Assembly: GCA_016744065.1 (NCBI GenBank)
Contig: JADGFA010000021.1
Coordinates: 4,174-68,173, forward strand
DNA length: 64,000 nucleotides
Reading direction: 5' to 3'
Source: Gammaproteobacteria bacterium
GTDB lineage: Bacteria; Pseudomonadota; Gammaproteobacteria; SZUA-229
Under the pieces are notes generated by a model. It was not told where the DNA came from. It made no database searches and saw nothing but the letters and a program-made list of their open reading frames with translations. Shown here piece by piece: positions 7,234 to 64,000 of this stretch (position 1 is its first letter; the number at the start of each line of letters is the position of its first letter). A program made the position numbers and the translations under genes.

Positions 7234-7384
7234 CTGGAGTAAGTGTCATGTGGTTTTTCGATGTGTCTTATTTAGTATTATAGCTAAGGGGCGATTGTAA
7301 AAAAAAGTTATCGCGCATTGGGCGTCTATATTTCTTATATGTTTTAAAAATGAGTTTCATATTGAACGCCCCCATTATTTTTAC

Positions 7385-7931
7385 GTGAAGGCATTATGCG
7401 CAAAGCCTCTGACTGGCGTATTGAGAAAATATTTTGGTGTAGGTGCAAAGTTAATCAGGGCTTATTTTTATCCTTGTATTTACCTTGATCATAAATTAAT
7501 TGCTAAAAAAGGCCTGAATAAAGCAGAGATAGAAAAAGTGCTTGCGCTTGAGCTAACAAAGCTTGATGGTGTTTTACTTGCTATATCGAGTTCGCAGTTA
7601 ACTGAAAACAGGTTGACAGATAATATGCTGACTCGTGCCATTATTAATAATTATAATGAAAAAACGTTCTGATGATATTTACCAGGTATTTGAGCCAAAT
7701 GTGTTTATAAATGATTTTGATGGTTTAACGGTGGCATCGAGCCATGGTTCACCCTGGAAGTATGATACTTATGTGCCGGTTATTTTTGCAGGAGCAGGGT
7801 TAGATGATAAAAAAGTCACTCGTCAAATATCCCCCTATGATATTGCTCCCACTATAGCTGCATATCTAAATATAAAGCCCCCATCGGGAGCAACCGGAAG
7901 TCTGCTTTCAGAGGTGCTAGTTGATAGATAG
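7385..7931 (+). pseudogene. remnant of an alkaline-phosphatase-superfamily phosphodiesterase/nucleotide pyrophosphatase (C-terminal ~170 aa only, frameshifted)
   Basis: Two adjacent ORFs (7385-7672 and 7635-7931) in different frames together read ...NNYNEK/RSDDIYQVFEPNVFI...SSHGSPWKYDTYVPVIFAGAG...DIAPTIAAYLNIKPPSG. That is the C-terminal end of this family. The frames join at an A6 run (7659-7664), and the N-terminal ~2/3 is absent. Confidence 0.6.
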
Positions 7932-49102: not shown

Positions 49103-50410
49103 TTACTCACGCATAAGTAGATTGTGAATTGCCATTTTGACATTATTAGATGACCAGTCAATTCCGCCGGCAACTGAATAGCGAATAAAACCTTTTTTAT
49201 CAAGTAAATAACTGGTGGGAAATGCAAAGACATTCCATTTTCTTGGTAACCCCTGGTCAGGATCTAGCAATACTGGGAAGTTCACAGGGTGTGTTTTAAG
49301 AAATCTATTTATATCATCAGGGTTCTCGCCTAGATTGATCGCCAAAATTTCAAACGGACTGTCTTTTAATTCCATATTTAAACCGGACATCGACGGCATT
49401 TCATGTACACAGGGAGGGCACCAGCTGGCCCAGAAGTTAACAACAATAACTTTTCCGGTATATTGAGAGAGTGAATGAGAGACGCCATTAATATCGCTGA
49501 GCGTGAAGTCATCAGGGCGAAGTTGTCCTGTATACTTTCGGAGAACCCCAGTTGTTTTTTTGCTTCTTTTACTAAAAGATTTGGTTGTTTTTATAGGTTT
49601 TCTTTGTTTTGCATATGCCGTGGTGAGCTCCATACTACGTATGATTTTATCACTAAAGGTTGATGCCATCCTGCTCTCTAAATCAGTTGCATCCAGCCGA
49701 AAAAAGAATCTGTTTCGTACATTTTCCAGCTTCTGTGCATATACATCACTACCGCCTTCCTCTAACGCGTCAATTGTACTCTTTATACGTAACGAAAGCG
49801 TTGATTTTAATGGCATATAAATAAAGACAGGAAGGTTTGTTGCTTTCGCAATGGCTAGAAATTGGCCACGATTACCAGCATCAGGAGTGTTTTTGAATAG
49901 ATTAGGTGAGACTAGAATAACGCCTGACAACACACTATCAGAGAGCAACTGCCATGTGTGAGCTGCCTCAAGCAAAGTACTAGCGCCATTGTCGTTACTG
50001 AAAAGGTAAATATTCTTATTCGTTTTTTCTGCATGAAGCATTAATTCAGAATAAGCAGATACGGGTATTTCAGCCATGCTTGATTCCACCTCAGGTAGAA
50101 ACCATGTGTCAAAAGGGTTTGCTATCCATGTTTCAATTCCTTTATCGCTTAATTTTTCAGCCAGCCCATTTAGCCCATCTGTTATCCCATGCGATGAAGG
50201 AAAAACAATAAGTAAGGAATCGCCATCCGCTTTATAAACGTTTACTTGAAGTTCAGAACCATCGCGAAGATTCACAGACATTATGTCTACTGCATAGGAT
50301 GTCTGTATGTACATTAGGGTTGCAATAAGGAGTAGTAATTTACTTAGCATAGACTTCTTTATTGAATATAACGATCGGGTTGGGCGACTTGTTATGTGTT
50401 TTTTAACCAT
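49103..50410 (-). CDS. exported two-domain protein: N-terminal alpha/beta-hydrolase-like region fused to a TlpA-type thioredoxin domain
   Basis: 435 aa with a signal/anchor. The C-terminal ~150 aa contain VVNFWASWCPPCVHEMP and the TlpA/ResA pattern. The N-terminal ~270 aa have no catalytic motif that I recognise. Confidence 0.7.
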   Translation of the reverse strand: MVKKHITSRPTRSLYSIKKSMLSKLLLLIATLMYIQTSYAVDIMSVNLRDGSELQVNVYKADGDSLLIVFPSSHGITDGLNGLAEKLSDKGIETWIANPFDTWFLPEVESSMAEIPVSAYSELMLHAEKTNKNIYLFSNDNGASTLLEAAHTWQLLSDSVLSGVILVSPNLFKNTPDAGNRGQFLAIAKATNLPVFIYMPLKSTLSLRIKSTIDALEEGGSDVYAQKLENVRNRFFFRLDATDLESRMASTFSDKIIRSMELTTAYAKQRKPIKTTKSFSKRSKKTTGVLRKYTGQLRPDDFTLSDINGVSHSLSQYTGKVIVVNFWASWCPPCVHEMPSMSGLNMELKDSPFEILAINLGENPDDINRFLKTHPVNFPVLLDPDQGLPRKWNVFAFPTSYLLDKKGFIRYSVAGGIDWSSNNVKMAIHNLLMRE

Positions 50411-50803: not shown

Positions 50804-51097
50804 ATGCAAAAACGACAAACATTTAGCAAAGAATTTAAACATGAAGCCGTTAGGCTGCTTGAAACAACAAACAAACCCGCGGCTGATCTTGCAAGAGAAT
50901 TAGGTGTGAGACGCAATCAGCTCTACAAATGGCAAGAACAACTACGCTCTAAGGGTGAAGACGCCTTTCCGGGCAAAGGCCGTCGAACAGAAAAGGATGA
51001 TGAAATAGCTCAATTAAAACGAGAGCTAGAGCGCGTCAAGGAGGAGCGTGACATATTAAAAAAGGCCGCGCTGTACTTTGCAAGGGAAACCGAGTGA
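50804..51097 (+). CDS. IS3-family transposase OrfA (HTH)
   Basis: 97 aa, FSKEFKHEAVRLL...LARELGVRRNQLYKWQ, and a leucine-zipper-like tail ending at the frameshift window ILKKAALYFA. Confidence 0.9.
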   Translation: MQKRQTFSKEFKHEAVRLLETTNKPAADLARELGVRRNQLYKWQEQLRSKGEDAFPGKGRRTEKDDEIAQLKRELERVKEERDILKKAALYFARETE

Positions 51098-51954
51098 AGT
51101 ACCAGTTCATCCTTGATCATCAAGATGAGCATACAACGACCATATTATGTGAAGCGTTAAATATAAAACGCAGTAGTTTTTATGATTGGAAGTTACGTAG
51201 CGAAAGTGAAAGTGATAAACAAAACAGTTACTTACTTAATCGCATCAAAACAATACATAAAGCATCGAGAGAGAATTATGGCGCCGTTAAAACCTGGAAA
51301 GCACTACGAGACTCAGGTGAAAGTTGTGGTTTACATCGAATTGAGCGACTAAGACGTAAACATGGAATAGAAGCCAAACGCATGAGGCTCTTTAGAGCCT
51401 CAAATAGCAGTCGAAATAGTGAGCCAGCAGCAGACAATATACTAAACCGTGAATTTATTGTGCATGCACCTGATCGCGTATGGGTGGGCGATATAACGTT
51501 TATCACAACGCGTAAAGGCGTATTGTTTTTAGCCACGATCATTGATCTGTATTCTCGAAAAATTGTTGGCTGGTCAATGAGCGATAAACAAAACAGGCAT
51601 TTAGTTAAAGATGCTTTGCATATGGCAATAGAAAACAGGAAACCTAAAGCTGGCTTGATACACCATACTGACCAGGGTGTTCAATATACCGCACGTGAAG
51701 ACAAGACAATACTAGAGGCTCATGACATGATTCAAAGTATGAGTCGAAAAGGTAACTGCCATGATAATGCGGTTGCAGAAAGCTTTTTCAGTCATTTAAA
51801 AAATGAACTGATATATCATCGAACCTTTGCAGATCGAGATGAAGCTCGTTCAGCAGTATTTGATTACATTGAAGTATTTTATAACCAGCAACGAACTCAT
51901 CAAACACTCGGCTATAAAACGCCAAATGATTATGAGATGATGAATGTTGCTTAA
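51094..51954 (+). CDS. IS3-family transposase OrfB (DDE integrase core), expressed by -1 frameshift
   Basis: Motifs WVGDITFI, HHTDQGVQYT and NCHDNAVAESFF. The frame is -1 relative to orfA, with the slippery heptamer AAAAAAG at 51058-51064. Confidence 0.9.
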   Translation: MKYQFILDHQDEHTTTILCEALNIKRSSFYDWKLRSESESDKQNSYLLNRIKTIHKASRENYGAVKTWKALRDSGESCGLHRIERLRRKHGIEAKRMRLFRASNSSRNSEPAADNILNREFIVHAPDRVWVGDITFITTRKGVLFLATIIDLYSRKIVGWSMSDKQNRHLVKDALHMAIENRKPKAGLIHHTDQGVQYTAREDKTILEAHDMIQSMSRKGNCHDNAVAESFFSHLKNELIYHRTFADRDEARSAVFDYIEVFYNQQRTHQTLGYKTPNDYEMMNVA

Positions 51955-52043: not shown

Positions 52044-52484
52044 TTAATTTATGTAAGACTCTGGACATTTGGCTTCTTTGCTAAAGTTATTTATACTTTC
52101 TATAAACACAACATGAATTTGATCAATTAGCCAATGTCCATTGTTTTCTCTATATTTTAGGCTGAAAATTAATGGCACTTTTTCTTTATCATAGCCATTA
52201 ATCGTTAGACAACCATTTTTATGGTTTATTTTTTCATAGTGTTTATCTACAGAATTCATATGATTTTTAAATAGTAACTGACTGGACGCATCAGGGTTTG
52301 TAACGTAATCATCACCTAAGAATGATTGGGTAAAGTATACTTTAGCAACATCTTTAATGTTATTTTCATTGGCTGATTCGCTATATAATATATATGATTT
52401 AAATAGTGTATATGGTGACTTGTTAGTAGTAGTACAACTTACAAGAAACAGAATAGAAAAAAAACTTAACATTATGCTGTTCAT
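52044..52484 (-). CDS. hypothetical lipoprotein (146 aa)
   Basis: Lipobox FLVSC after a signal peptide. Starts 2 nt after the upstream gene. The ENNGHWLIDQIHVVF tail suggests an NTF2-like fold. Confidence 0.55.
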   Translation of the reverse strand: MNSIMLSFFSILFLVSCTTTNKSPYTLFKSYILYSESANENNIKDVAKVYFTQSFLGDDYVTNPDASSQLLFKNHMNSVDKHYEKINHKNGCLTINGYDKEKVPLIFSLKYRENNGHWLIDQIHVVFIESINNFSKEAKCPESYIN

Positions 52485-52486
52485 TT

Positions 52487-52915
52487 TTAATGCCCCGTGA
52501 TTTTTTGTAATTCCAAATCATAAACATGATGCCTGTCTTTAAGCGCGCGTGCTGCTCTACATAAAAGCCCAGAACATGATATTATTAGCTCTTCCAGGTC
52601 AAAATCCCCCATTACGGTTAATTTCATATATACCAAATCAAAAGTAGCTCTATATCCTATATTCATGCCCCCTTTATTATTAAAAGAGACGCTAACTCGT
52701 TTTATTTTAGCACCAATTCTATCTAGAACTGGTGACCCAGTGAATGTGACAGTTCCTGCCGTTCCTGTAAGTGTGGCTTCACCATTTTGATCTATGGTAA
52801 GTTTTGTGCCTGCTTTATTTGCCATGATTTTTACTGTCATTCCTTTATCCTTTGAATAAGCCAACTCCAAAAACTTTGCAATTGTTATCTTCGCTTCTGT
52901 TCTTGTTAGATCCAT
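52487..52915 (-). CDS. hypothetical cytoplasmic protein (142 aa)
   Basis: ORF with a GGGGAAATC RBS region and no signal peptide. No recognisable family. Confidence 0.5.
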   Translation of the reverse strand: MDLTRTEAKITIAKFLELAYSKDKGMTVKIMANKAGTKLTIDQNGEATLTGTAGTVTFTGSPVLDRIGAKIKRVSVSFNNKGGMNIGYRATFDLVYMKLTVMGDFDLEELIISCSGLLCRAARALKDRHHVYDLELQKITGH

Positions 52916-53463: not shown

Positions 53464-54534
53464 TTAAATATGACACAGGGAAATAGCTTCATCAGCACTT
53501 TCCAGAGCGCCTTCAAGATACCCGCCGTGTTGCTGTGCGACTTCGGTACCCGCCAGTATTAATTGATTATTCCAGAAATGTCTGGGTATATCCGCTGGAT
53601 ACTGGGGATGTTGTATGGGGGAGTTTAAGTCAGTTTCAGTTGTTGTGTTTTCATCCAGGCTCCAGTCTTTTATCTGAACATCCCTGATGTTCTGGCTCTC
53701 ATCACCAAACAGGCGTTGTAGTTGTGCCATACATGACGTTATTAATTGTTCATTGTTTATCTGTTTACGTTGATGTGCATTTAAACCAACGAAAGAGGTA
53801 AGGGCATAAAGCTTTTCATCTTCGGGGGAGCCATCATAAATTTCAGATAATGGTCCGTAATGGCTGAATACTTCACCTGAGAGGTTCTGTTCTCGCCAGA
53901 AAGGTTTGTCATAAATGAATAGAATTTTACAGTGCCCTGACATCCAGGTGGGTATGCTTTTCCAGGTGTTGTTTATCTCTTCTGGAAGCGCAGGGTTAAA
54001 GGTTATATTTTGTTGAATAAGTCTTGGGGGTAATGCAAAAATAATTTTATTTGCGCTATACCGAACAACTTTACCATTTTGTAAGGTGACAATACTTAAA
54101 TCATCTTTATGGATTTTCTGTACAAGTGTATTCAGGTGAATAGATGATTCAGGTAATTTATTCTGTAACGCATTAACCAGGCTCTGGCTGCCACCTTCAA
54201 TTCGATATGATTCACTGTGTGATGACTGACTGTTATATCGTTCAGTCTCATCAGGGTTCTTTTCATATAACATATCACCGGATGTAAATTGTTTAAATAC
54301 ATTTAAATTAAGCTGGCTCATTAACTGATTTAAACGAGGCTGTAACTGAGGCCATACCCAGGCTGGCCCCATATCAAAATGACTCTTATTATATTCGGGT
54401 GATAATATTCGCCCACCGATTCGATCACGTGCTTCCAGTAAAATAACATCCTGGTTTTTCTGTTGTAACTGCCAGGCACAATATAAACCGCTTAAACCCG
54501 CACCTATGATGATAATGTTATGTTGTTCACTCAT
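53464..54534 (-). CDS. FAD-dependent amine-oxidase-family oxidoreductase
   Basis: IIIIGAGLSGLYCAW...LLEARDRIGGR dinucleotide fold and the C-terminal GTEVAQQHGGYLEGALESA motif. Overlaps the upstream gene by 4 nt. Confidence 0.8.
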   Translation of the reverse strand: MSEQHNIIIIGAGLSGLYCAWQLQQKNQDVILLEARDRIGGRILSPEYNKSHFDMGPAWVWPQLQPRLNQLMSQLNLNVFKQFTSGDMLYEKNPDETERYNSQSSHSESYRIEGGSQSLVNALQNKLPESSIHLNTLVQKIHKDDLSIVTLQNGKVVRYSANKIIFALPPRLIQQNITFNPALPEEINNTWKSIPTWMSGHCKILFIYDKPFWREQNLSGEVFSHYGPLSEIYDGSPEDEKLYALTSFVGLNAHQRKQINNEQLITSCMAQLQRLFGDESQNIRDVQIKDWSLDENTTTETDLNSPIQHPQYPADIPRHFWNNQLILAGTEVAQQHGGYLEGALESADEAISLCHI

Positions 54535-55262
54535 TTTGCAGATTCATCTGACATAGGTTTATTTGGCGTGGGCTCATCTGATATGTGCTCATATGAAACA
54601 GGTTCCAGCAGGTGGCCTGTTTTACGTAAAATCAGGCAGTTTTTATTAACTGTAATATTCTGTTTTGAACCCGCTGGTAAACGTAACCAACTGCCGTTAG
54701 AGTAGTTGCCGGTATCATCACTAAAGCTTCCATCGATAACAAAGTATTCAACACCGGCTTCAAAAATAAGGTCAGTAAACTTCATGCCTGCCGTCCAGTG
54801 CATCATGCAGACCGACTCATAATCCGCTTCAAACAGGTGTAATATTTCTCCGAAAGTTTTATCTTTATTCCAGAGGTTTTTATCGTGGGTATTAATCGCT
54901 ATTTGCTTTTGATCATCCGGGTGCATCTGCCATAGTTTAACTAAAATAGTACAGCCTTTATCACTATGGGGTGCATGCCCTGTACCGGTCGGGTTGCGAA
55001 CATAATAACCTTCAGGGTAATCTGCGTGTTGATCTGAGAATATGCCCTGCAACACAAGAAACTCTTCACCGCCATCATGTACGTGACCACTGAATGCGCT
55101 TTGTGGGGCAAAGCGCACCACAGTAGTTACACGTTCAACAGGCGGGTTATCATCATCTGCTTCTAACCTGAGGCGTTGTACACCTGCTGATGGTGAATTC
55201 TCCCATTCAAGACTGTTAATATTGAGGTTTGCCCTTAGTGATAAATCAGCATTGAGTTTCAT
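54531..55262 (-). CDS. ChrR-type cupin domain protein (two cupin repeats, no anti-sigma ZAS domain)
   Basis: GHVHDGGEEFLVLQGIFSDQHADYPEGYYVRNPTGTGHAPHSDKGC matches the ChrR C-terminal cupin pattern. No H-x3-C-x2-C motif is present. Confidence 0.7.
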   Translation of the reverse strand: MKLNADLSLRANLNINSLEWENSPSAGVQRLRLEADDDNPPVERVTTVVRFAPQSAFSGHVHDGGEEFLVLQGIFSDQHADYPEGYYVRNPTGTGHAPHSDKGCTILVKLWQMHPDDQKQIAINTHDKNLWNKDKTFGEILHLFEADYESVCMMHWTAGMKFTDLIFEAGVEYFVIDGSFSDDTGNYSNGSWLRLPAGSKQNITVNKNCLILRKTGHLLEPVSYEHISDEPTPNKPMSDESAK

Positions 55263-55291
55263 ATGGTTTCTAAATTTATAATTTATGGGTT

Positions 55292-56302
55292 TTATAGTTT
55301 GTAAGTTACACCAAATGTAAATGCAACATCAGGGCTATTTTCAAAATTAACAATATTTTCTACTAAACCGGCCTCAAAAAGATACGATTCGGTTCTCCAT
55401 TTATACCCAATATGTATTTCATGGCTGTATTCAGATAGCTCACCTATATCAACAACAACGCCTTCGCTGAATAAATACTGCAATATAAAAGCTTCATCAC
55501 CTTCCATATTAAATTCATAACCTAACATGCCACTAAACTGGTGATCGGTCAGGGGCATGCCTAGAACGTCCTTTGAGCCAAACTCGGTATATGACAGATT
55601 AGCGTATGCGTAACCATTGTTTTTTTTCTGGGCAACACTGAACTGCACGCCATAATCAAAAGCACCATGTTCAATCAGGCCGTCGTGTAACATTTCATAA
55701 CTTATATTAAAGTTCATTGCGATTGCTGGCCAGCCAATACTTTTATCAGCCAGAACTTTCTGCACGCTGATGCCCACAGTTTGTGAGGTCTGACCGCGAG
55801 CTTCTTTACCTAGATTAATCCCGTATTCAGAAATCTGTATATGCGTACCATCTTTAACTGCTTCATCACGGCCATTCTGGTCGATATCAAACAGGTCATG
55901 AAACTCCAGGGTTAACTGATCAAGGTGTGCATTGACTATGCGCCGTTCATTAATGGAAAACTCTGCGGACCAGTTATTAGCAAACCCTCGGTTAATCGCA
56001 AAGCGCGTATCGGTAAAGTGATAATCCAGTACAAACAAATTTTCCTGGCTGCTATAAACACTTGCTGCGGCAATATTAAACTGTAACTCTGTCTGGCCTT
56101 CAGGCAGTCCGTAAGGTGAGCGGGGAACAGGTGAAAGGCGTAGTGACTGAGCTGGTGATAATGAACGAATAGTTAAAGGTCCTAAAGTGCCATTCCAGTA
56201 TTCTTCAGGTTCAGGCTCATATGCATAAGCTCTGTCCTGTGTAATTGCGATGAATATGAATAAAATAAAAAATCTGAAATAAAGCACTGTGAAAACTTTC
56301 AT
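55292..56302 (-). CDS. outer-membrane beta-barrel protein, DUF3187-like
   Basis: Signal peptide, alternating amphipathic strands throughout, and the terminal FTFGVTYKL. Family assignment is from memory of DUF3187 features only. Confidence 0.55.
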   Translation of the reverse strand: MKVFTVLYFRFFILFIFIAITQDRAYAYEPEPEEYWNGTLGPLTIRSLSPAQSLRLSPVPRSPYGLPEGQTELQFNIAAASVYSSQENLFVLDYHFTDTRFAINRGFANNWSAEFSINERRIVNAHLDQLTLEFHDLFDIDQNGRDEAVKDGTHIQISEYGINLGKEARGQTSQTVGISVQKVLADKSIGWPAIAMNFNISYEMLHDGLIEHGAFDYGVQFSVAQKKNNGYAYANLSYTEFGSKDVLGMPLTDHQFSGMLGYEFNMEGDEAFILQYLFSEGVVVDIGELSEYSHEIHIGYKWRTESYLFEAGLVENIVNFENSPDVAFTFGVTYKL

Positions 56303-56364
56303 ATTTAATCCTGAAATCAGTTTATTTAAGCAATAACTATTTGTTTAAAATGTTGATTTTAGAA

Positions 56365-56382
56365 TTGCAGGCTATATGCCAG
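56365..56382 (-). promoter_or_regulatory. sigma54 (-24/-12) promoter P1
   Basis: The minus strand reads CTGGCATATAGCCTGCAA against the consensus YTGGCACGrNNNTTGCW. GG and GC are separated by 10 nt. It lies ~60 nt upstream of the 56302 start. Confidence 0.8.
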
Positions 56383-56397
56383 GTTTGTGTATTTTTG

Positions 56398-56410
56398 TAA
56401 CCGATTGATT
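56398..56410 (-). promoter_or_regulatory. IHF-like site between UAS and P1
   Basis: The minus strand reads AATCAATCGGTTA, matching WATCAANNNNTTR. The offset from the -24 GG is the same as for the site at 60018-60030. Confidence 0.5.
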
Positions 56411-56448
56411 ATTAAGCTAATAGTTTGTATTTTTTATAGATTTGTTTG

Positions 56449-56501
56449 AACGAAATATCGTAACTAACGAATAGTCGTTGATTTTATAACGTTATTACGT
56501 T
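56449..56501. promoter_or_regulatory. upstream activator sequences: three AACGN-N4-NCGTT palindromes
   Basis: AACGAAATATCGTA (56449-56462), AACGAATAGTCGTT (56466-56479) and AACGTTATTACGTT (56488-56501). Their centres lie 76, 93 and 115 nt from the -24 GG of P1. Confidence 0.7.
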
Positions 56502-56543
56502 ATAAAATTATAATGAAATTTACGAAATAATGGATATTACGTC

Positions 56544-58433
56544 ATGAGTGAGATGAAATCGCCTGAGCCATGTATTAGTAGCTTTACCTCGGTTAGTGCA
56601 ATGGGTGAGCTAATACTGGAAGCCGTAGGTGAAGGTATATTTGGTATCGACTGTAACGGCATAACGATCTTTGCTAATCCCGCCGCAGCGCGCATGACAG
56701 GATGGAGTGTTGAGGAATTAACCGGGCAAAAAAGTCATGCCATGTTGCACCATACAAAAATAGATGGCTCTGTTTATCATGCTAATGATTGTCCTGTTCA
56801 TGCATCATTTAAAGATGGAGATGTTCATCATGTAGATGATGAAATATTCTGGCGTAAAGATGGTAGTCATTTCCTGGTTGAATATACAAGCACACCGGTT
56901 AAAAAAGAGGGTCAATTATTAGGTGCAGTGGTGGTCTTTAATGATATAACCGAACGTAAGTGTGAGCAGGAAAAAATTAGAAAAATTTATAATGAAAATC
57001 AGCTTATTTTGCACTCAGCAGGTGAGGGTGTTTACGGCCTGTGCTGTGAAGGTAAAACCACTTTTGTAAATCCTGCCGCTGCCGCGATGCTAGGTTATGA
57101 GGTTGAAGAACTAAAAGGTCAGCCTATGCACAGTCTTTTACATCACACCCATGCCGATGGATCTGATTACCCAAATATAGAGTGTCCTATTTATGCTGCA
57201 TTTAAAGATGGGTCAGTTCATCATGTGGATGATGAAGTGTTCTGGCGTAAAGATGGCAGTAGTTTTCCAGTTGAATACACCAGTACGCCTATAAAACAGG
57301 ATGGTAAACTGTTAGGTGCTGTGGTGGTATTTAATGATGTAACAAAGCGTAAGCAGGCCGAAGAAGAGTTACAGAAAGCTTACGCAGAAGTAGAAAAAAT
57401 GAAGCAGCGGCTGGAAGCTGAAAATACTTACTTACAGGAAGAAATTAGAACTAAGCATAATTTTAAGGAAATTGTTGGTCAGAGTTGTCCAATTAAACAG
57501 GTGTTAAATCAGATTGAGCTGGTTGCGCCTACCATGGCCAATGTATTAATTATTGGTGAGTCTGGCACAGGTAAAGAACTTATCGCCCGTGCAATTCATG
57601 ATAGAAGTGAACGCAGTGATCGACCTTTAATAAGGGTTAACTGCGCAGCAATACCCAATGAGCTGTTTGAGAGTGAATTTTTTGGTCATATGCGTGGTTC
57701 ATTTACCGGTGCTATTAAAAACAGAACAGGCCGATTTGAGCTGGCAGATGGGGGTACCATATTTCTTGATGAAGTAGGTGAAATACCCATTGATTTACAA
57801 AGTAAATTACTACGGGTTTTGCAGGAAGGTCAGTTTGAGCGAGTAGGGGATGAAGCGACACGAACAGTTGATGTGCGTATTATTGCCGCGACGAATCGTG
57901 ACCTGAGAAAAGAAGTTGAAAAGGGAAATTTCAGAGAGGATTTATATTTTCGATTAAATGTTTTTCCAGTGGAAGCGGTGCCATTAAGAGACAGGCTGGA
58001 TGATATACCACTTTTGGCAGAGCATTTTATTACAATCATATGTAAGCGTATTAATAGAGAAATTCCAAAGCTAACCAATGCCAATGTTAAGCAGCTTCAG
58101 ACTTATGCCTGGGGGGGGAATATACGTGAGTTACAGAATGTAATTGAACGGGCGATTATTGTAGGCAAGGGAAACAGACTTATATTTAATTTACCAAAAA
58201 ATAAAAATGAACATATAGACGCTGTGCAGGAAAGTGTTAATTCAACAGATTCTGATTTACCCTATAATGAAATAGAACGGTTAGCGCGTGATAAAATAAA
58301 TATCATAGCGGCATTGACCTATACCAGGGGAAAAATATCTGGTGCGGAAGGTGCAGCGGAGTTACTGGGGATTAAACCTACAACACTCGCTTCAAGAATG
58401 AAATCACTGGGAATTGATAAAAAAGACATATAG
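56544..58433 (+). CDS. sigma54-dependent transcriptional activator, PAS-PAS-AAA+-HTH
   Basis: Two tandem PAS domains, Walker [15 protein letters not shown]-type loop [12 protein letters not shown], Walker [19 protein letters not shown], and the Fis-type [24 protein letters not shown]. Confidence 0.92.
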
Positions 58434-58472
58434 TTTATTTTACAAATAATTGTTTATTAATGTGGCTAAATT

Positions 58473-59084
58473 TTACAGTGATTTAAATTTATTTTTAATA
58501 ATTACATCCTCTAGTGGTAGCTGTCCAGGTCTGGGCCATGCAGGTTTAATTTCTTTACCAATGGCCAGGCACATGGTTATTACATGGTCTTCAGGAAGAT
58601 GTATGACTTTAGCTACCTTATTATAATCAAATCCATCCATAGGGCATGAATCATACCCCATGGACCTGGCGCTTAACATTAAGGTCTGTGCAGCAATACC
58701 ACAGGAGCGCATGGCTTCATCACGTTGTACCTGATGCCTGTTTCGATAATAATTATCCATTGCAGATAACATTATTTCCCTTAACGCTTTAGATGCATTT
58801 CTCCAGTACCGTTGAGTTCCTTTTTCCCAGGATTTTAAATCAGCGCAAAGTACAATGAATAATGAGGCATCCGTTACCTGTGCCTGATCCCATGCATGTG
58901 ATCTGATTTTGTTTCTTATTTCAATATCTTCTATTATTACAAAGCGCCAGTTCTGTTGATTGAAAGCAGTGGGTGATAAAATAGCTAATGAGAGTAACTT
59001 GTTTATTTCCATTTCACTGAAGCTATATAGTGGGTCAAAATGTTTAATTGATCGACGCGTGATAATGGCTTCTTCGGTATTCAT
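58473..59084 (-). CDS. FMN-dependent nitroreductase family protein
   Basis: ITRRSIKHF start motif, PTAFNQQNWRFVII, and ~200 aa length. Confidence 0.85.
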   Translation of the reverse strand: MNTEEAIITRRSIKHFDPLYSFSEMEINKLLSLAILSPTAFNQQNWRFVIIEDIEIRNKIRSHAWDQAQVTDASLFIVLCADLKSWEKGTQRYWRNASKALREIMLSAMDNYYRNRHQVQRDEAMRSCGIAAQTLMLSARSMGYDSCPMDGFDYNKVAKVIHLPEDHVITMCLAIGKEIKPAWPRPGQLPLEDVIIKNKFKSL

Positions 59085-59117
59085 TGGGGTTCCTGTTTGC
59101 TTATGTTAATAGTATTA

Positions 59118-59627
59118 TTAAATTAATTTTTTTGGATAAGTTTTTTTAGATAAAAAATTAATAAAAATAAGTGCAATAATAACCAGAGCGATTGAACCGA
59201 TAAAACTGGGCATCAGTAAAAAAGGCCAGTTTGCATTAGCTAAAAATACGATAATTGGATTTGAGCCCGCAGGTGGGTGAACGGTATCTGTCATAATCAT
59301 TAGACCGAGAGCAACCGATAAAGCTAACGCCATGCTCCACCATTGTGGACCAACAAAATGTAAAAATGCCAAACCGATAAAGGTCGATAATAAATGACCT
59401 GCTATGACATTTTTGGGTTGTGAAAATGGGCTTTCAGGATAGCCAAATAATAATACACATGAAGCTCCAAATGAGCCCATGATAAGTGGGTAACCCGTAT
59501 AGTTAGCGAGAAAAGAAATAATGGCAATAGCACTAAATCCACCGAGTGAAGCAAAGAGCGCCTTGTTCATAAGTGAGTTATTATTAAATAGCTTAAAGTC
59601 GGTGTTTTTCTGTTGAAAAAAATTCAT
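59118..59627 (-). CDS. HPP-family integral membrane protein
   Basis: 169 aa with four to five TM helices and the family signature VHPPAGSNP. Confidence 0.85.
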   Translation of the reverse strand: MNFFQQKNTDFKLFNNNSLMNKALFASLGGFSAIAIISFLANYTGYPLIMGSFGASCVLLFGYPESPFSQPKNVIAGHLLSTFIGLAFLHFVGPQWWSMALALSVALGLMIMTDTVHPPAGSNPIIVFLANANWPFLLMPSFIGSIALVIIALIFINFLSKKTYPKKLI

Positions 59628-59779
59628 ATTAGCTCCGAAATATGTCGTGATTCTGTTTGAGGTTATATAAAGACCAGTATTTTAAATTTTTAAGTGTTGG
59701 TCTTTAAAATATTAATCCCTGGTGATTTGTTTTTAATGATAAATTTGTATTTACCGGATTTTAGCTTCATCATTAGTGT

Positions 59780-59917
59780 TTAAGGGCTGGAGAAATGCCC
59801 AGTCAGGAGTGTCGTTGTTATACCGTTAATGCTTTTCGGTGGGGCGGAAAATGTTAGAGCGGGTATTAGAAATGTAATACCGACGATAAGATTTGAAATA
59901 AGTTTTTTAAGTGTCAT
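59780..59917 (-). CDS. possible small exported peptide (45 aa)
   Basis: AAGGAAAAATC precedes the ATG. The product is MTLKKLISNLIVGITFLIPALTFSA/PPKSINGITTTLLTGHFSSP. It is the first ORF downstream of sigma54 promoter P2 and is too short to be in the ORF track. Confidence 0.35.
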   Translation of the reverse strand: MTLKKLISNLIVGITFLIPALTFSAPPKSINGITTTLLTGHFSSP

Positions 59918-59984
59918 GATTTTTCCTTATCTGGTTAGTTTTTAATAACGACCTGGTTGTTAACTGTCTGGTTCGTTAAGAATG

Positions 59985-60002
59985 GAGCACCAGCCATGCC
60001 AG
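59985..60002 (-). promoter_or_regulatory. sigma54 (-24/-12) promoter P2
   Basis: The minus strand reads CTGGCATGGCTGGTGCTC, with GG-N10-GC spacing and TGGCA / TGCT elements. It faces the small ORF, HPP and nitroreductase genes. Confidence 0.75.
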
Positions 60003-60017
60003 AAATTGTTTTTACTT

Positions 60018-60030
60018 TAACCGCATGATA
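60018..60030 (-). promoter_or_regulatory. IHF-like site between UAS and P2
   Basis: The minus strand reads TATCATGCGGTTA, one mismatch from WATCAANNNNTTR. It starts 18 nt from the -24 GG, exactly as at P1. Confidence 0.4.
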
Positions 60031-60068
60031 TTTAAGGTAATAAATTATATTTCACATGGCTGGAGTAA

Positions 60069-60120
60069 TACGATAATTCGGGTATAACGAATAGTCGGGT
60101 GTATTCAACGATATATCGTT
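60069..60120. promoter_or_regulatory. upstream activator sequences: three AACGN-N4-NCGTT-type palindromes
   Basis: TACGATAATTCGGG (60069-60082), AACGAATAGTCGGG (60086-60099) and AACGATATATCGTT (60107-60120). Their centres lie 76, 93 and 114 nt from the -24 GG of P2. Confidence 0.7.
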
Positions 60121-60199: not shown

Positions 60200-60925
60200 A
60201 TGATTACTCTTTATCAGTTTCCTATTTCACATTTTTGTGAAAAGGCTCGTTGGGCACTCGATTATAAAAAAATTACTTATGAAACTAAAAACCTGTTGCC
60301 TGGACCGCATGTAAAGCAGGTGATGTCTATGGCAAAAAGACCAGAAGTACCTGTGCTAAAACATGAAAAAAATATTATTCAAAATTCGAATGAAATTATT
60401 GATTATCTGGATAAAACATTTGCAGATAATGCGTTAACGCCAGAAGATGAAGAGAGTCGAATTAAGGTATTGGAGTGGGAGGCTTTTGTTGATAAAGAAG
60501 TAGGGCCAAACTTACGCACATATTTTTATCATACTTTGTTGGAGCATCCGAAATTGTTAATACCTATTTTTACTTATAAAGGGCCCTGGTATGGAAAAAT
60601 TTTTATGAAGTTTTTTTTCCCTGCTTTGCGAGTGAAAATGCTTAAGTTTATGCGGATTAATAATGAAACTGCTGCTCAGGCGAAACAGGATCTCAGGTGT
60701 GCGATAGATAAGCTTAATCATCGCCTTTCAGAACATGAGTTTCTGGTGGGAGAGCACTTTACTCGAGCTGATCTGGCGGCAGCATCTTTATTGGCACCTT
60801 TAGTGCAGCCAGAAAAATATGGTTTACCCTGGCCGTCACCTTTGCCCCTGCCTTTGCAGCAGACAATTGATGAATGGCAGGATGATCTGGTATGGGTTCG
60901 GCAATTATATGATAAGTACAGGTAA
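60200..60925 (+). CDS. glutathione S-transferase family protein
   Basis: N-terminal thioredoxin-like domain (ITLYQFPISHFCEKARWALDYKKITYE ... VPVLKHE) and a helical C-terminal domain. 241 aa. Confidence 0.8.
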   Translation: MITLYQFPISHFCEKARWALDYKKITYETKNLLPGPHVKQVMSMAKRPEVPVLKHEKNIIQNSNEIIDYLDKTFADNALTPEDEESRIKVLEWEAFVDKEVGPNLRTYFYHTLLEHPKLLIPIFTYKGPWYGKIFMKFFFPALRVKMLKFMRINNETAAQAKQDLRCAIDKLNHRLSEHEFLVGEHFTRADLAAASLLAPLVQPEKYGLPWPSPLPLPLQQTIDEWQDDLVWVRQLYDKYR

Positions 60926-60981: not shown

Positions 60982-61854
60982 TTATTTTAATGGTAAATAA
61001 ATATCTGTTTTTAACTCATGTTCCTGAACATCGGTAATGAGTGTCAGATAATGAAAAAAGCAGGGGTAGTCACGTAGTTCCTCACCACTCTCCGGTAGCC
61101 ATTCAGCATACATTCGGCAAACGCTTTCACCCACATTATCAAGGCTGCCGTTATGGCGTAATACGGCACAACGGCCACCTTGAATTTCAGCTGATTTTAT
61201 ACCCTGTGAATTCTCTGCAACGTCATCTTTAATTGAGCCACAAATGTCAAAGCGGAATTCTTCTGGTGCTGTGGTTTCCGGGTTGTCATAAACAATGCCA
61301 TAGGATTGGCTAGTTGCCACAGGGGACTGTTTGCTTTGTTTACGCCACTCAATAAATTTACTAACGGATTCATAAACACGATCTGGTGGCCCTCTGTGTT
61401 CCAGCAGTGCAACTTTAGTTTGTTTGAAATTAACGATTTTAATATCCATAACCTGGCATGCCTCATTTTTAGGTAGTGTAAACTGAACCCGGGTGTGCCA
61501 TTCTGGCCACCTGGGCTCGGCTCTAAATTGAGAGGGCGTTTGCTCAAAAGCATGTTTAAATGCACGGGAAAAAGATTCCGGATTTTCAAACTGAGCTTCT
61601 AATGCAATATCGATAACACGGCTTTCTTTATCAAAAGCCAGGCGATAGGATGCACGCTTTAATCGCATTAACTGAACAAACCGCGTAACACTAATGCCGG
61701 TATAGTCAGAAAATTGTCGATGAAAGTGAAATTTTGAAAAATGCGCAATTTGACACAACAAATCTAATGGCATTTCTTCATCCAGGTGTTGATAAATATA
61801 ATCACACACCCGGTGAATTCGCGCTGCATAGGTGCTGGTCTTAGTTCCGCTCAA
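60982..61854 (-). CDS. AraC-family regulator with a GyrI-like effector-binding domain
   Basis: N-terminal double HTH (FSKFHFHRQFSDYTGISVTRFVQLMRLKRASYRL; FENPESFSRAFKHAFEQTPSQFR) and a C-terminal ~150-aa GyrI-like / SOUL-type domain. Confidence 0.85.
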   Translation of the reverse strand: MSGTKTSTYAARIHRVCDYIYQHLDEEMPLDLLCQIAHFSKFHFHRQFSDYTGISVTRFVQLMRLKRASYRLAFDKESRVIDIALEAQFENPESFSRAFKHAFEQTPSQFRAEPRWPEWHTRVQFTLPKNEACQVMDIKIVNFKQTKVALLEHRGPPDRVYESVSKFIEWRKQSKQSPVATSQSYGIVYDNPETTAPEEFRFDICGSIKDDVAENSQGIKSAEIQGGRCAVLRHNGSLDNVGESVCRMYAEWLPESGEELRDYPCFFHYLTLITDVQEHELKTDIYLPLK

Positions 61855-62462: not shown

Positions 62463-63305
62463 ATGTCAGAAATTATATTTTTAAATATGGCCGATGATTT
62501 ACACGTTGACGGACATAAAGCCGTTGAAGCCTTAAAAATAAAACACCCAGATCAGTTTAGTAAGTATCGAAAGAAGCGTAAAAAACAGATTGTTGAGATT
62601 GAAATGGTCCCTTTCTTTCGTGCCTGGAAAGCGGGAACGGGTAATGTGGCTGATCTGGTTAAAATTCGAAAGCAGATAACTGAAGCTAAAACGGTAATGC
62701 TCTCTATTCATGGCCCAATGAATTCGGTTAATTATGGTCTTATTCGTGATCCGCAGGGCGGTGGGGGGGAACAGGTTAGTTATCAACTGTTGGGGAGGTT
62801 AATAAGAGCACTGTTTTCTGCTGGACACTGCCATAACTTTACACTGGTGACCTGTTTTGCTGCCAGAAGTGAAAATTATGCTGCCAATCATAACCTGTTA
62901 GCTAATATAGACTGGACTAATAGCTTTGCATATAAATTATTTAATGAGATAACGCCACAGCGTGAAGTACGTATGACGGCTCGTATTGGAGAACTCAGTT
63001 TTAGTACGACGTCCGGAGAGTCTGAAGTTCAAAGCGAGTTATCTATACAGGGGACTATTGATAATGCTGCGTTGCTGGCTGAGGCTGGCGTTGCGGAAAG
63101 CCAGGTCTGGTGGGAAAAAAATGTTTCTCGGTTAATGACGGGGGATACGCATCAACAGTTTGTCATTGATATGACCATAGCTAAGAATCAAGGTGCAGCC
63201 GGATTAGTGGCACTATGTAGTGGTCTAATAGCACCGGACACTTTAATAAGAGATAATACTAATCAATTATTAAGGTGCCAGAATGAGTCAGAAACGGACA
63301 TATAA
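62463..63305 (+). CDS. hypothetical protein, 3' end apparently replaced by IS3 sequence
   Basis: 280-aa ORF. Roughly the last 30 codons (from ~63216) lie inside the probable left end of the downstream IS. The native part carries TVMLSIHGP ... NFTLVTCFAARS (a His-Gly / Cys pair 48 residues apart). Confidence 0.55.
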   Translation: MSEIIFLNMADDLHVDGHKAVEALKIKHPDQFSKYRKKRKKQIVEIEMVPFFRAWKAGTGNVADLVKIRKQITEAKTVMLSIHGPMNSVNYGLIRDPQGGGGEQVSYQLLGRLIRALFSAGHCHNFTLVTCFAARSENYAANHNLLANIDWTNSFAYKLFNEITPQREVRMTARIGELSFSTTSGESEVQSELSIQGTIDNAALLAEAGVAESQVWWEKNVSRLMTGDTHQQFVIDMTIAKNQGAAGLVALCSGLIAPDTLIRDNTNQLLRCQNESETDI

Positions 63306-63573
63306 ACAGTATTCTAAAGAATATAAAGAAGAAGCGGTAGCGCTCGTTAAAGAACAGGGTTATTCGGTGCCGGAGGCAGCGAAATCACTGGGCATAGCTA
63401 GCAATATGTTATATCGTTGGAAAGAACACATTGAATCTCAGCTCGATGGCAAATCATTATCGGTTGATGAACGTGAAGAATTGAAGCGGCTGCGCAAAGA
63501 AAATAAAAACCTACGGATGGAGAAAGAGATTTTAAAAAAGGCCAGCGCCTTCTTCGCGAAAGAAATGAAGTAA
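63283..63573 (+). CDS. IS3-family transposase OrfA
   Basis: 96 aa. YSKEYKEEAVALV...AAKSLGIASNMLYRWK HTH and a leucine-zipper tail ending EILKKASAFFAKE. Confidence 0.9.
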   Translation: MSQKRTYKQYSKEYKEEAVALVKEQGYSVPEAAKSLGIASNMLYRWKEHIESQLDGKSLSVDEREELKRLRKENKNLRMEKEILKKASAFFAKEMK

Positions 63574-64000
63574 AGTTTGTTTTTATTAGAGATGAGTCTA
63601 GGCATTATCCGATTGTCGTTTTATGTCGGATCATGCAAATCGGTACGTCAGCCTATTATGACTGGAATAAGCGACCAGGCAAGCTGATTAGTGGCGATGT
63701 ATTGCATCTCTATCGACGATTGAAGGCCTTATTTAAACGCAGCCGAGATAGTTTGGGTTCTCGCGAGATGATGAAAAAGTTACGCGAAGAAGGTTTTAAA
63801 ATTGGACGCTACAAAGTTCGCAGCTTGATGGCGAAGTTGAACTTGATCGTTCGTCAACGTGTTGCGTACAAAGTGACGACGAAAAGAAATCATCGTAATG
63901 CAGTGGCACTTAATTTGCTAAATCAAAACTTTAATCCGGTTGCACCGAATCAAGTTTGGGCCGGTGATATTACTTACTTAAAAACAGGTGAAGGCTGGAT
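63567..64000 (+). CDS. IS3-family transposase OrfB, N-terminal part (truncated by the window end)
   Basis: The -1 frame reads ...YPIVVLCRIMQIGTSAYYDWNKRPG...SRDSLGSREMMKKLREEGFKIGRYKVRSLM...PNQVWAGDITYLKTGEGW, a typical IS3 OrfB. The slippery AAAAAAG is at 63534-63540. Confidence 0.85.

Follow-up and report, generated by a model that had tools for sequence, protein, structure and literature searches.

To which regulatory system does a sigma-54 activator belong when its gene lies between two operons, each headed by a -24/-12 promoter of its own, and what does it control? The question is raised by positions 53464-60120 of a 64,000-nucleotide stretch of DNA from a gammaproteobacterium of the SZUA-229 lineage (contig JADGFA010000021.1; the whole stretch is called the window here). 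The plus-strand gene at 56544-58433 encodes a sigma-54 enhancer-binding protein of 629 aa with the domain order PAS-PAS-AAA+-helix-turn-helix (HTH) (Pfam Sigma54_activat, E 2e-72). On either side of it there is a minus-strand operon. Operon A encodes a DUF3187 protein, a bicupin and an amine-oxidase-like flavoprotein, while operon B consists of a decayed first gene, an HPP-family membrane protein gene and a nitroreductase gene. The initial annotation had described this bracketing with two promoters, and it was confirmed as real by the open reading frames (ORFs), Pfam and the promoter matches; our gene calls were based on a program-made ORF list and a Pfam scan, and the coordinates of all ORFs agreed. 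We propose, with a probability of about 0.7, that a paralogue of CynF, from a sister clade, governs a sigma-54 regulon at this locus and would act by the mechanism described below.

Both control regions contain a palindrome, ACGA-N4-TCGT, which had been overlooked in the initial annotation. We observed three such dyads per promoter, and these are the predicted upstream activator sites. For promoter A (TGGCATATAGCCTGCA, 56366-56381, minus strand) they span 56450-56500 (ACGATATTTCGT, 56450-56461; ACGACTATTCGT, 56467-56478; and a variant, ACGTAATAACGT, 56489-56500) and are located 80, 97 and 119 nt from the T of TGG. For promoter B (TGGCATGGCTGGTGCT, 59986-60001, minus strand, a pattern match) they span 60070-60119 (CCGAATTATCGT, 60070-60081; CCGACTATTCGT, 60087-60098; ACGATATATCGT, 60108-60119), with offsets of 80, 97 and 118 nt. 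Between the dyads and the -24 element of each promoter there is a minus-strand box resembling a site of integration host factor (IHF): AATCAATCGGTTA at 56398-56410 for promoter A and TATCATGCGGTTA at 60018-60030 for promoter B.

By a composite we mean a -24/-12 match preceded, at a distance of 55-135 nt, by one or more perfect dyads. Exactly two composites were present in 64 kb, both at the predicted places, compared with 0 of 400 Markov-simulated windows. The pattern TGGCAY-N6-TGCW had four matches in the window against 0.87 expected. The other matches, TGGCACTTAATTTGCT (63904-63919, plus strand, near an insertion sequence (IS) element) and TGGCACCTTTAGTGCA (60792-60807, plus strand, inside a glutathione S-transferase (GST) gene), had no dyads upstream and are probably chance or unrelated occurrences. 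The position of promoter A is conserved in six assemblies. When 14 promoters of operon A, operon B and a third operon of the closest relatives, operon C, were stacked from six assemblies, every element of the layout kept its position, from the dyads with their offsets of 80, 97 and 118 nt through the IHF-like box to the -24/-12 element; a WATCAA-N4-TTR box occupied the same place in nearly all of them, and by its sequence it would be bound by IHF. Since the operator, the spacing, the IHF-like box and the sigma-54 promoter are common to operons A and B, the two are very likely co-regulated by the adjoining activator, as had been anticipated.

The distal dyad of promoter A differs from the canonical ACGA-N4-TCGT. 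Its left half is a variant (ACGT, ACGC or ACGG) in the window and in the related loci L081, L082, L084, L119 and L164, and its right half has become ACGT in the window, L081, L082, L084 and L119. Such a site may be weaker by design, or it may be read in another way. Further, a degenerate copy of the dyad (AACGAACCAGACAGTT, 59962-59977, minus strand) is located downstream of the -12 element in the leader of operon B. Relatives have AACGA-N6-TCGTT at this site, and their operon C has a perfect ACGAATAATCGT; an additional level of control is hinted at by these extra dyads, which lie downstream of the -12 element in operons B and C of the relatives.

The same signature was found outside the window. 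With a strict regular expression, composites were detected in 26 of the 79 family loci, either beside the regulator or at its distal operon, and this expression overlooked further dyad-bearing promoters with variants of the -12 element. Six loci intended as controls had a composite as well (L033, L045, L053, L068, L129 and L133; Phycisphaeraceae, Polyangium, Woeseiaceae and others). In all of them it was located within approximately 750 bp of a gene for a distant regulator which could be aligned through its C-terminal HTH. The activators of these six loci are 43-54% identical over the linker, AAA+ and HTH, and their sensor regions differ. The control set of "unrelated" activator loci was thus contaminated by distant family members, and the result is still informative: a composite was seen in no locus without such a regulator. 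Judging from these alignments, the pairing of operator and HTH appears to extend beyond the PAS-PAS clade. Wherever the dyads accompany this type of regulator, in Gamma-, Beta- and Alphaproteobacteria and in other groups, their distance to a sigma-54 promoter is that of an enhancer.

The domain and motif set of an enhancer-binding protein appears complete in the activator. PAS1 (nt 56586-56966) and PAS2 (nt 56979-57368) are followed by the AAA+ domain (residues 310-476; PF00158, E 1.6e-72) with Walker A GESGTGKE (residues 338-345, 57555-57578), the sigma-54 contact loop GSFTGA (residues 385-390, 57696-57713) and Walker B DEVGE (residues 409-413, 57768-57782), and by a probable HTH segment (58350-58403) conserved across all clades; all are on the plus strand. 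NCBIfam gave strong partial matches to FhlA, PrdR and NorR over the AAA+ and HTH parts, all of them below the curated cutoffs (for FhlA, 379 against 830 bits). With generic enhancer-binding proteins of the NorR, FhlA, PrdR and NifA types the window shares the AAA+ sigma-54 domain, dyads at approximately -80 to -120, the IHF-like box and the -24/-12 promoter, whereas its sensor is PAS-PAS and not GAF, and its targets differ.

The sensor part has a history of its own. PAS1 and PAS2 of the activator are 65% identical, while the identity of PAS1 to the N-terminal PAS of the clade linked to cyn genes is only about 23%; PAS1 appears to be a duplicate of PAS2. Many members of the clade, of approximately 500 aa, have a single PAS, and PAS2 is conserved family-wide. 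Its subtype, which often occurs in tandem arrays and in histidine kinases, has the signature H…HH…DG.YP…C, with the Cys conserved in 97%. Solved structures were tried as a source for the ligand. The best single-sequence match was the PAS of RbdA (E 3e-9), and a profile search returned CitA PASc, RbdA, DosP and WalK (E 1e-8 to 1e-11). None of them was close and none had the Cys/His signature; therefore no ligand was deduced. An AlphaFold2 model of PAS2 built from a two-sequence alignment was unusable (pLDDT 42.8).

The only studied relative of the activator is CynF of Pseudomonas pseudoalcaligenes CECT5344, a sigma-54-dependent regulator whose gene is divergent from cynABDS (cyanate transport and cyanase) and which is genetically required for the cyanate-induced expression of this operon (PMC6627978). 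Relatives of the window activator at 49-57% identity (Halomonas/Vreelandella, Candidatus Thiodiazotropha, Sedimenticolaceae, Terasakiella, Nitrosovibrio, Acetobacteraceae) are likewise divergent from a cynABDS operon, which here encodes cyanase together with an ABC permease and ATPase and an NMT1_2 (NrtA-like) binding protein. As in the window, the regulator is divergent from a sigma-54-driven operon. The identity covers PAS2, the linker, AAA+ and HTH, and the recognition region of the HTH is conserved.

The dyads are present in the CynF region too. The published cynF-cynA intergenic sequence contains ACGATATCTCGT, ACGAAATCTCGT and ACGAGATTTTCGT, with distances of 23 and 17 nt between them, and all precede TGGTACAGCTCCTGCA; the authors marked a sigma-54 promoter, CTGGTACAGCTCCTGCA, and a sigma-70 promoter only, and no operator (PMC6627978, Figure S1). 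Two of these dyads are perfect ACGA-N4-TCGT and the third has N5. Three dyads per promoter and a spacing of 17 and 21-23 nt are therefore common to both systems, although the dyad-promoter offsets, which we took from text extracted from the figure (108, 85 and 68 nt), are 12-15 nt shorter than at the other loci. Because the HTH segment is conserved across the clades and the same dyads occur in the published CynF promoter region, we regard the window activator as a member of the CynF family in its DNA recognition and promoter architecture, and its clade as a sister clade of CynF, putatively paralogous to it.

The two clades differ in their sensors and targets. The N-terminal PAS of CynF is replaced in the window clade by the duplicate of PAS2, and the printed N-terminus of CynF matches members of the cyn-linked clade only. 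The sigma-54 contact loop is GAFTGA in the CynF-type, cyn-linked clade and GSFTGA in the window, and activators of the window clade would drive two to three operons of unrelated content. Since the first PAS is a PAS2 duplicate and not the N-terminal PAS of CynF, the signal of the window clade probably differs from that of CynF; if the specificity of CynF resides in its own N-terminal PAS, specificity for cyanate would be lost. No homologues of cynA, cynB or cynS were detected in the window, the sole match there being to a generic ABC ATPase with 32% identity, and no cyanase or cyanate ABC transporter in the conserved module of L081, L084 and L164. The initial annotation had stated that no regulon of this composition was described. 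For the composition this held, as we found no such sigma-54 regulon in the literature, but the family of the regulator has been described with CynF.

The relationship to CynF raises the possibility that the module handles nitrogen oxyanions in a response of the cyanate or nitrite type, with HPP as a small-anion channel and the flavoenzymes processing N-oxy or nitro compounds. PAS2, the HTH and the operator, all common to the window regulator and the cyn-linked activators, would fit. So would the HPP protein (59118-59627, minus strand, 169 aa; TM_HPP, PF04982, E 3e-48, more exactly 2.6e-48, over 146 of 169 residues): in the part of PMC7438415 that cites Maeda 2014, nitrite transport is reported for distant HPP members, of cyanobacteria and chloroplasts, in agreement with the link made in the initial annotation. 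Moreover, nitrate/nitrite transporters may take up cyanate in P. pseudoalcaligenes (PMC6627978), and the single-PAS members L001 and L093 lie beside NrtA-like ABC transporters. That transporter was considered as a target and rejected, as its sigma-54 promoter has no dyads. Further, cyanase, an NrtA/CynA transporter and nitrite or nitrate reductase are absent from the window and from the conserved module, the N-terminal PAS of CynF is missing, and most other targets in the clade (GST, old yellow enzyme (OYE), glyoxalase, hydrolases, PagL) have no place in nitrogen assimilation. We therefore consider a nitrogen-oxyanion function unlikely.

We wanted to see how far the proposed CynF-type regulon is kept among relatives. 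There are more than 120 full-length relatives of the activator at 60-90% identity. The full neighbourhood comprises the genes for the flavoprotein, the cupin, DUF3187, the divergent activator, the nitroreductase, HPP, a 125-aa protein and a divergent GST. It is present in the metagenome contigs Ga0209345_10000073 (fetched twice, as L081 and L085; activator identity 87%) and Ga0316204_10000619 (L084; 90%), and in the endosymbiont of Galathealinum brachiosum (GCA_003349885.1, L164; 92%). The neighbourhood, the conservation of which had been suggested as a check, is thus kept beyond this strain, in independent contigs and a symbiont with 87-92% activator identity. It is partial in L119 (88%). In L082 (79%) DUF3187 and operon B are kept, and in L083 (70%) DUF3187 is kept and an OYE reductase is added. 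Two peculiarities were observed in L164. A 273-aa HisKA/HATPase_c protein is encoded inside operon A, between DUF3187 and the cupin (6582-7403), and the activator is called as 519 aa only, with an uncalled gap of 570 bp upstream, which may reflect a frameshift or an incorrectly called start codon.

The first gene of operon A (55292-56302, minus strand; Pfam DUF3187, E 2e-64) encodes an exported protein which models as an outer-membrane beta-barrel of approximately 12 strands: the AlphaFold2 model (pLDDT 84.9) has about 12 long strands, and its best Foldseek match is FapF (5o67; TM 0.55-0.65, with values of 0.55 and 0.63). In L081-L085, L119 and L164 this gene and that of the activator are divergently oriented. 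As a general rule this linkage was rejected, since a DUF3187 paralogue at 57-59% identity pairs with a LysR regulator; the linkage is therefore specific to the orthologue. Our literature search gave nothing useful on DUF3187. The last gene of operon B (58473-59084, minus strand; Pfam Nitroreductase, E 6e-36) encodes a nitroreductase-family flavoprotein of 203 aa, the closest PDB entries of which are the YdfN-like 3bem and 3gbh. Its orthologues keep their position in L081, L082, L084 and L164.

A GST gene (60200-60925, plus strand; GST_N_3/GST_C) is divergent from operon B and starts 80 bp from its distal dyad. No -24/-12 match was found for it on its own strand. Its position is kept in L081, L084 and L164, and GSTs occur near clade members in four arrangements. 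The window GST is thus a syntenic companion of the module. The adjoining gene, for a Rob-like AraC/GyrI-domain regulator (60982-61854, minus strand), is not conserved with the module. It was considered as a recurrent partner and dismissed as a coincidence, the copy in L167 being only 23% identical.

For the clade as a whole, we listed targets by the dyad signature, with variants of the -12 element allowed where needed. In the window clade these are DUF3187-cupin-flavoprotein (AOX), P125-HPP-nitroreductase, where P125 is the 125-aa protein, and a DsrE-like protein with an FAD/NAD/2Fe-2S reductase. In other loci of this clade the signature precedes OYE (L083), alpha/beta-hydrolase-DUF1348-CMD-DUF2798-GST (L005, with alpha/beta-hydrolases also in L086 and L098), HPP-GST-reductase (L001), GST (L002) and PagL (L167, L168), and in L170 dyad clusters stand before glyoxalase-HPP and DsrE/PNPOx-like operons. 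HPP recurs in three different arrangements as a target preceded by dyads. In this mix, flavin reductases, GSTs, glyoxalase-fold proteins and hydrolases recur together with an outer-membrane barrel.

As the targets of clade members resemble regulons for electrophiles and oxidants more than nitrogen assimilation, we tentatively suggest, at somewhat less than even odds, that the role is a combined outer-membrane and detoxification response to thiol-reactive electrophiles or oxidants, and not nitrogen assimilation. NemR of Escherichia coli and YodB and MhqR of Bacillus subtilis are small Cys-based repressors which act at sigma-70 promoters. In gene content the clade resembles their regulons for electrophile and quinone detoxification, namely in OYE, nitroreductases, glyoxalase-fold proteins, alpha/beta-hydrolases, GST and an AhpD-like CMD, and in the conserved Cys of the sensor domain (97% in this PAS subtype). 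Unlike them, the window regulator is an ATP-dependent sigma-54 activator, and the barrels DUF3187 and PagL, together with HPP, are added. A wider and more speculative version, to which we give about half as much credence, is that marine Gammaproteobacteria and chemosynthetic symbionts share a widespread, undescribed stress regulon under sigma-54. The Cys/His-rich PAS would directly sense a thiol-reactive small molecule, such as an isocyanate- or cyanate-like electrophile, a quinone, sulfane sulfur or an oxidant, and barrels that remodel the outer membrane (DUF3187 or PagL), detoxifying flavoenzymes, GSTs and HPP would be co-activated.

In some single-PAS relatives the target is a gene for an extracytoplasmic function (ECF) sigma factor. 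It follows a gene for an exported isochorismatase-like protein in L106 (1338-2961, promoter confirmed), the same gene pair is present in L087, and in L005 (5276-5952) it stands alone. No anti-sigma gene was adjacent to the ECF sigma gene in these three loci. By its layout this arrangement is a putative cascade from the activator to an ECF sigma factor. In the HrpR/HrpS-HrpL cascade enhancer-binding proteins also drive an ECF sigma gene, as the dyad-bearing sigma-54 promoter would in L005, L087 and L106. The arrangement is absent from the window, however, and the sigma family and function are unrelated.

The initial annotation had read the module as photo-oxidative stress genes of the ECF sigmaE type rewired under a sigma-54/PAS sensor. 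It resembles the RpoE-ChrR singlet-oxygen regulon of Rhodobacter sphaeroides and its relatives in the ChrR-type cupin fold, in the amine-oxidase-like flavoprotein and in the combination of envelope-directed genes with redox enzymes, and RpoE-ChrR regulons do include an amine-oxidase-like gene, as had been stated (PMC5507510). The ECF sigma genes driven by dyad-bearing sigma-54 promoters in L005 and L106 would also fit. The class of regulator is another one, however, as RpoE-ChrR consists of an ECF sigma factor and an anti-sigma factor. The second gene of operon A (54531-55262, minus strand) encodes a bicupin of the ChrR C-terminal type (Pfam Cupin_7 in two stretches, E 1e-37; PDB 3o14, E 3.5e-44). 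Its match to the ChrR model TIGR02451 is limited to the C-terminal cupin part (profile positions 98-190 only; 47.5 bits, cutoff 124.5), and therefore it has no anti-sigma domain.

The third gene (53464-54534, minus strand; Amino_oxidase, E 5e-49, and NAD_binding_8) encodes a flavoprotein of 356 aa which is truncated. It resembles monoamine oxidase (MAO) and putrescine oxidase, its best solved relatives, without approximately 100 residues of the substrate domain: the PDB matches form two stretches and skip target residues from about 106 to 225. Orthologues of 354-357 aa are present in L081, L084 and L164. Neither the module nor its flanks showed the other hallmark genes of RpoE-ChrR regulons, namely the photolyase phrB, the cyclopropane-fatty-acid synthase cfaS, rpoE and chrR (PMC5507510), and the annotated ORFs of 53-62 kb included no ECF sigma factor. 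The ECF sigma genes of the relatives lack an adjacent ChrR-type partner, and most of the hosts come from sediments or seeps or are symbionts. We conclude that the resemblance is one of analogy only and that a rewired photo-oxidative set is improbable.

Another question is whether the module still works in this genome or is a relic that is being lost. The 45-aa ORF at the head of operon B, which had been taken, with reservation, for an exported peptide, corresponds to a 125-aa exported protein (P125) in the relatives. In tblastn the proteins of L081 and L082 matched the window with 59% and 53% identity up to codon 67, and the homology runs through the stop. The ORF (59780-59917) is the N-terminal part of a pseudogene remnant (59723-59917, minus strand) with an in-frame stop at 59780-59782 and the last approximately 58 codons, at the 3' end, deleted, and not a peptide gene.

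Operon C of the closest relatives, which encodes a 124-aa DsrE-like protein and a reductase of approximately 630 aa (FAD_binding_6, NAD_binding_1 and Fer2; the N-terminal half is unassigned and faintly PNPOx-like), has its own dyads and sigma-54 promoter (L081 1880-4337; L084 at about 3340; L164 1663-4092). It is absent from the whole 64-kb window. The comparison indicates that the module was ancestrally composed of three operons, one of which would have been lost here. At the place of operon C there are two ORFs of 146 and 142 aa (52044-52915, minus strand) and an IS3-family element; the 142-aa product has no Pfam match, and neither ORF was present in any fetched locus. Transposase genes of the IS3 family lie on both sides of the module (orfA 50804-51097 overlapping orfB 51094-51954, and a different orfA from 63283, at 63283-64000). 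Together, the IS elements, the pseudogene and the missing operon suggest local rearrangement or erosion of the genome.

The IS elements at 50804-51954 and from 63283, the pseudogene, the missing operon C and the degenerate downstream dyad of operon B would all suit a decaying relic that is no longer a working unit. On the other hand, the activator and the five remaining targets are intact and match the lengths of their orthologues, except that the C-terminus of the cupin is 18 residues longer, and the two promoters have kept their IHF-like boxes and all six dyads at the exact spacing. A relic is therefore about as improbable as the rewired set. It is very improbable that the dyads are operators of another transcription factor, with the adjoining activator working at a different place or by way of different sites: promoter A does have a conserved variant, ACGT-N4-ACGT, as its distal dyad, but the dyads follow this type of regulator across Gamma-, Beta- and Alphaproteobacteria and beyond, the HTH is conserved together with them, and CynF is genetically required at a dyad-bearing promoter (PMC6627978).

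Several observations weigh against a CynF-type sigma-54 regulon with a detoxifying role. The contact loop is GSFTGA and not the canonical GAFTGA, a variant conserved in the two-PAS clade, whereas the single-PAS and cyn-linked clades have GAFTGA. For HTH_8 in Pfam the activator scores 21.6 bits, a marginal match just short of the cutoff of 22, and rpoN is absent from the 64-kb window. The PAS subtype is generic, with 6,305 representative clusters at E<=1e-30, and says little about the signal. The functional theme is based on family names of variable targets, and the core members DUF3187, bicupin, HPP and P125 belong to families of unknown function. Finally, the module may be decaying in this genome, as the pseudogene, the degenerate downstream dyad and the absence of operon C would indicate.

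From the established mechanism of enhancer-binding proteins and the genetics of CynF, we infer how the CynF-type regulon would work. The activator would bind, via its C-terminal HTH, to the three dyads, which precede each -24 element by approximately 80, 97 and 118 nt, and three dimer sites would suffice for the nucleation of a single AAA+ hexamer. The DNA between dyads and promoter would be bent into a loop at the IHF-like site. The GSFTGA loop of the AAA+ ring could then remodel the sigma-54 holoenzyme at TGGCA-N6-TGC, which would lead to promoter opening. Operons A and B would fire together, and ancestrally operon C too, with the input received by the Cys/His-rich PAS subtype. The dyads of promoter A are also located 44-94 bp upstream of the start codon of the activator, and for this reason autoregulation is plausible.

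Other scans added little. NCBIfam gave an equivalog for none of the seven products. Rfam gave no match on 52-62 kb at E<=0.1, so that the leaders there contain no riboswitch or small RNA. Scans for sigma-70 promoters and terminators gave results at or below chance and were uninformative on the activator's own promoter and on the operon ends. Elsewhere in the window we noted a 763-aa protein with multihaem cytochrome c motifs and TPR repeats (4942-7233, plus strand) and an exported protein of 435 aa whose C-terminal domain is AhpC/TSA-thioredoxin-like (49103-50410, minus strand); the remaining content is ordinary for a chromosome (DnaK, a TonB-dependent receptor, a sulfatase).

In summary, these results turn an anonymous gene cluster into a defined regulon with a predicted operator, ACGA-N4-TCGT, placed three times per promoter at a fixed phase and usable for finding targets in any genome. 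They also link this regulon to CynF. The regulator family and the type of system were known; new are the swapped first sensor domain of this CynF-family activator and its new, variable target set. The comparison suggests that a sigma-54 activator can keep its DNA binding and promoter geometry while it swaps its first sensor domain and its targets. DUF3187, the ChrR-type bicupin, the bacterial HPP protein and the 125-aa exported protein are placed in one co-regulated context with detoxification enzymes, from which concrete hypotheses on their roles can be drawn. If the signal were identified, here and in CynF, a sensor family of more than 6,000 protein clusters would gain a function. As the module is conserved in the symbiont of a siboglinid tubeworm, it may matter at oxic-sulfidic interfaces.

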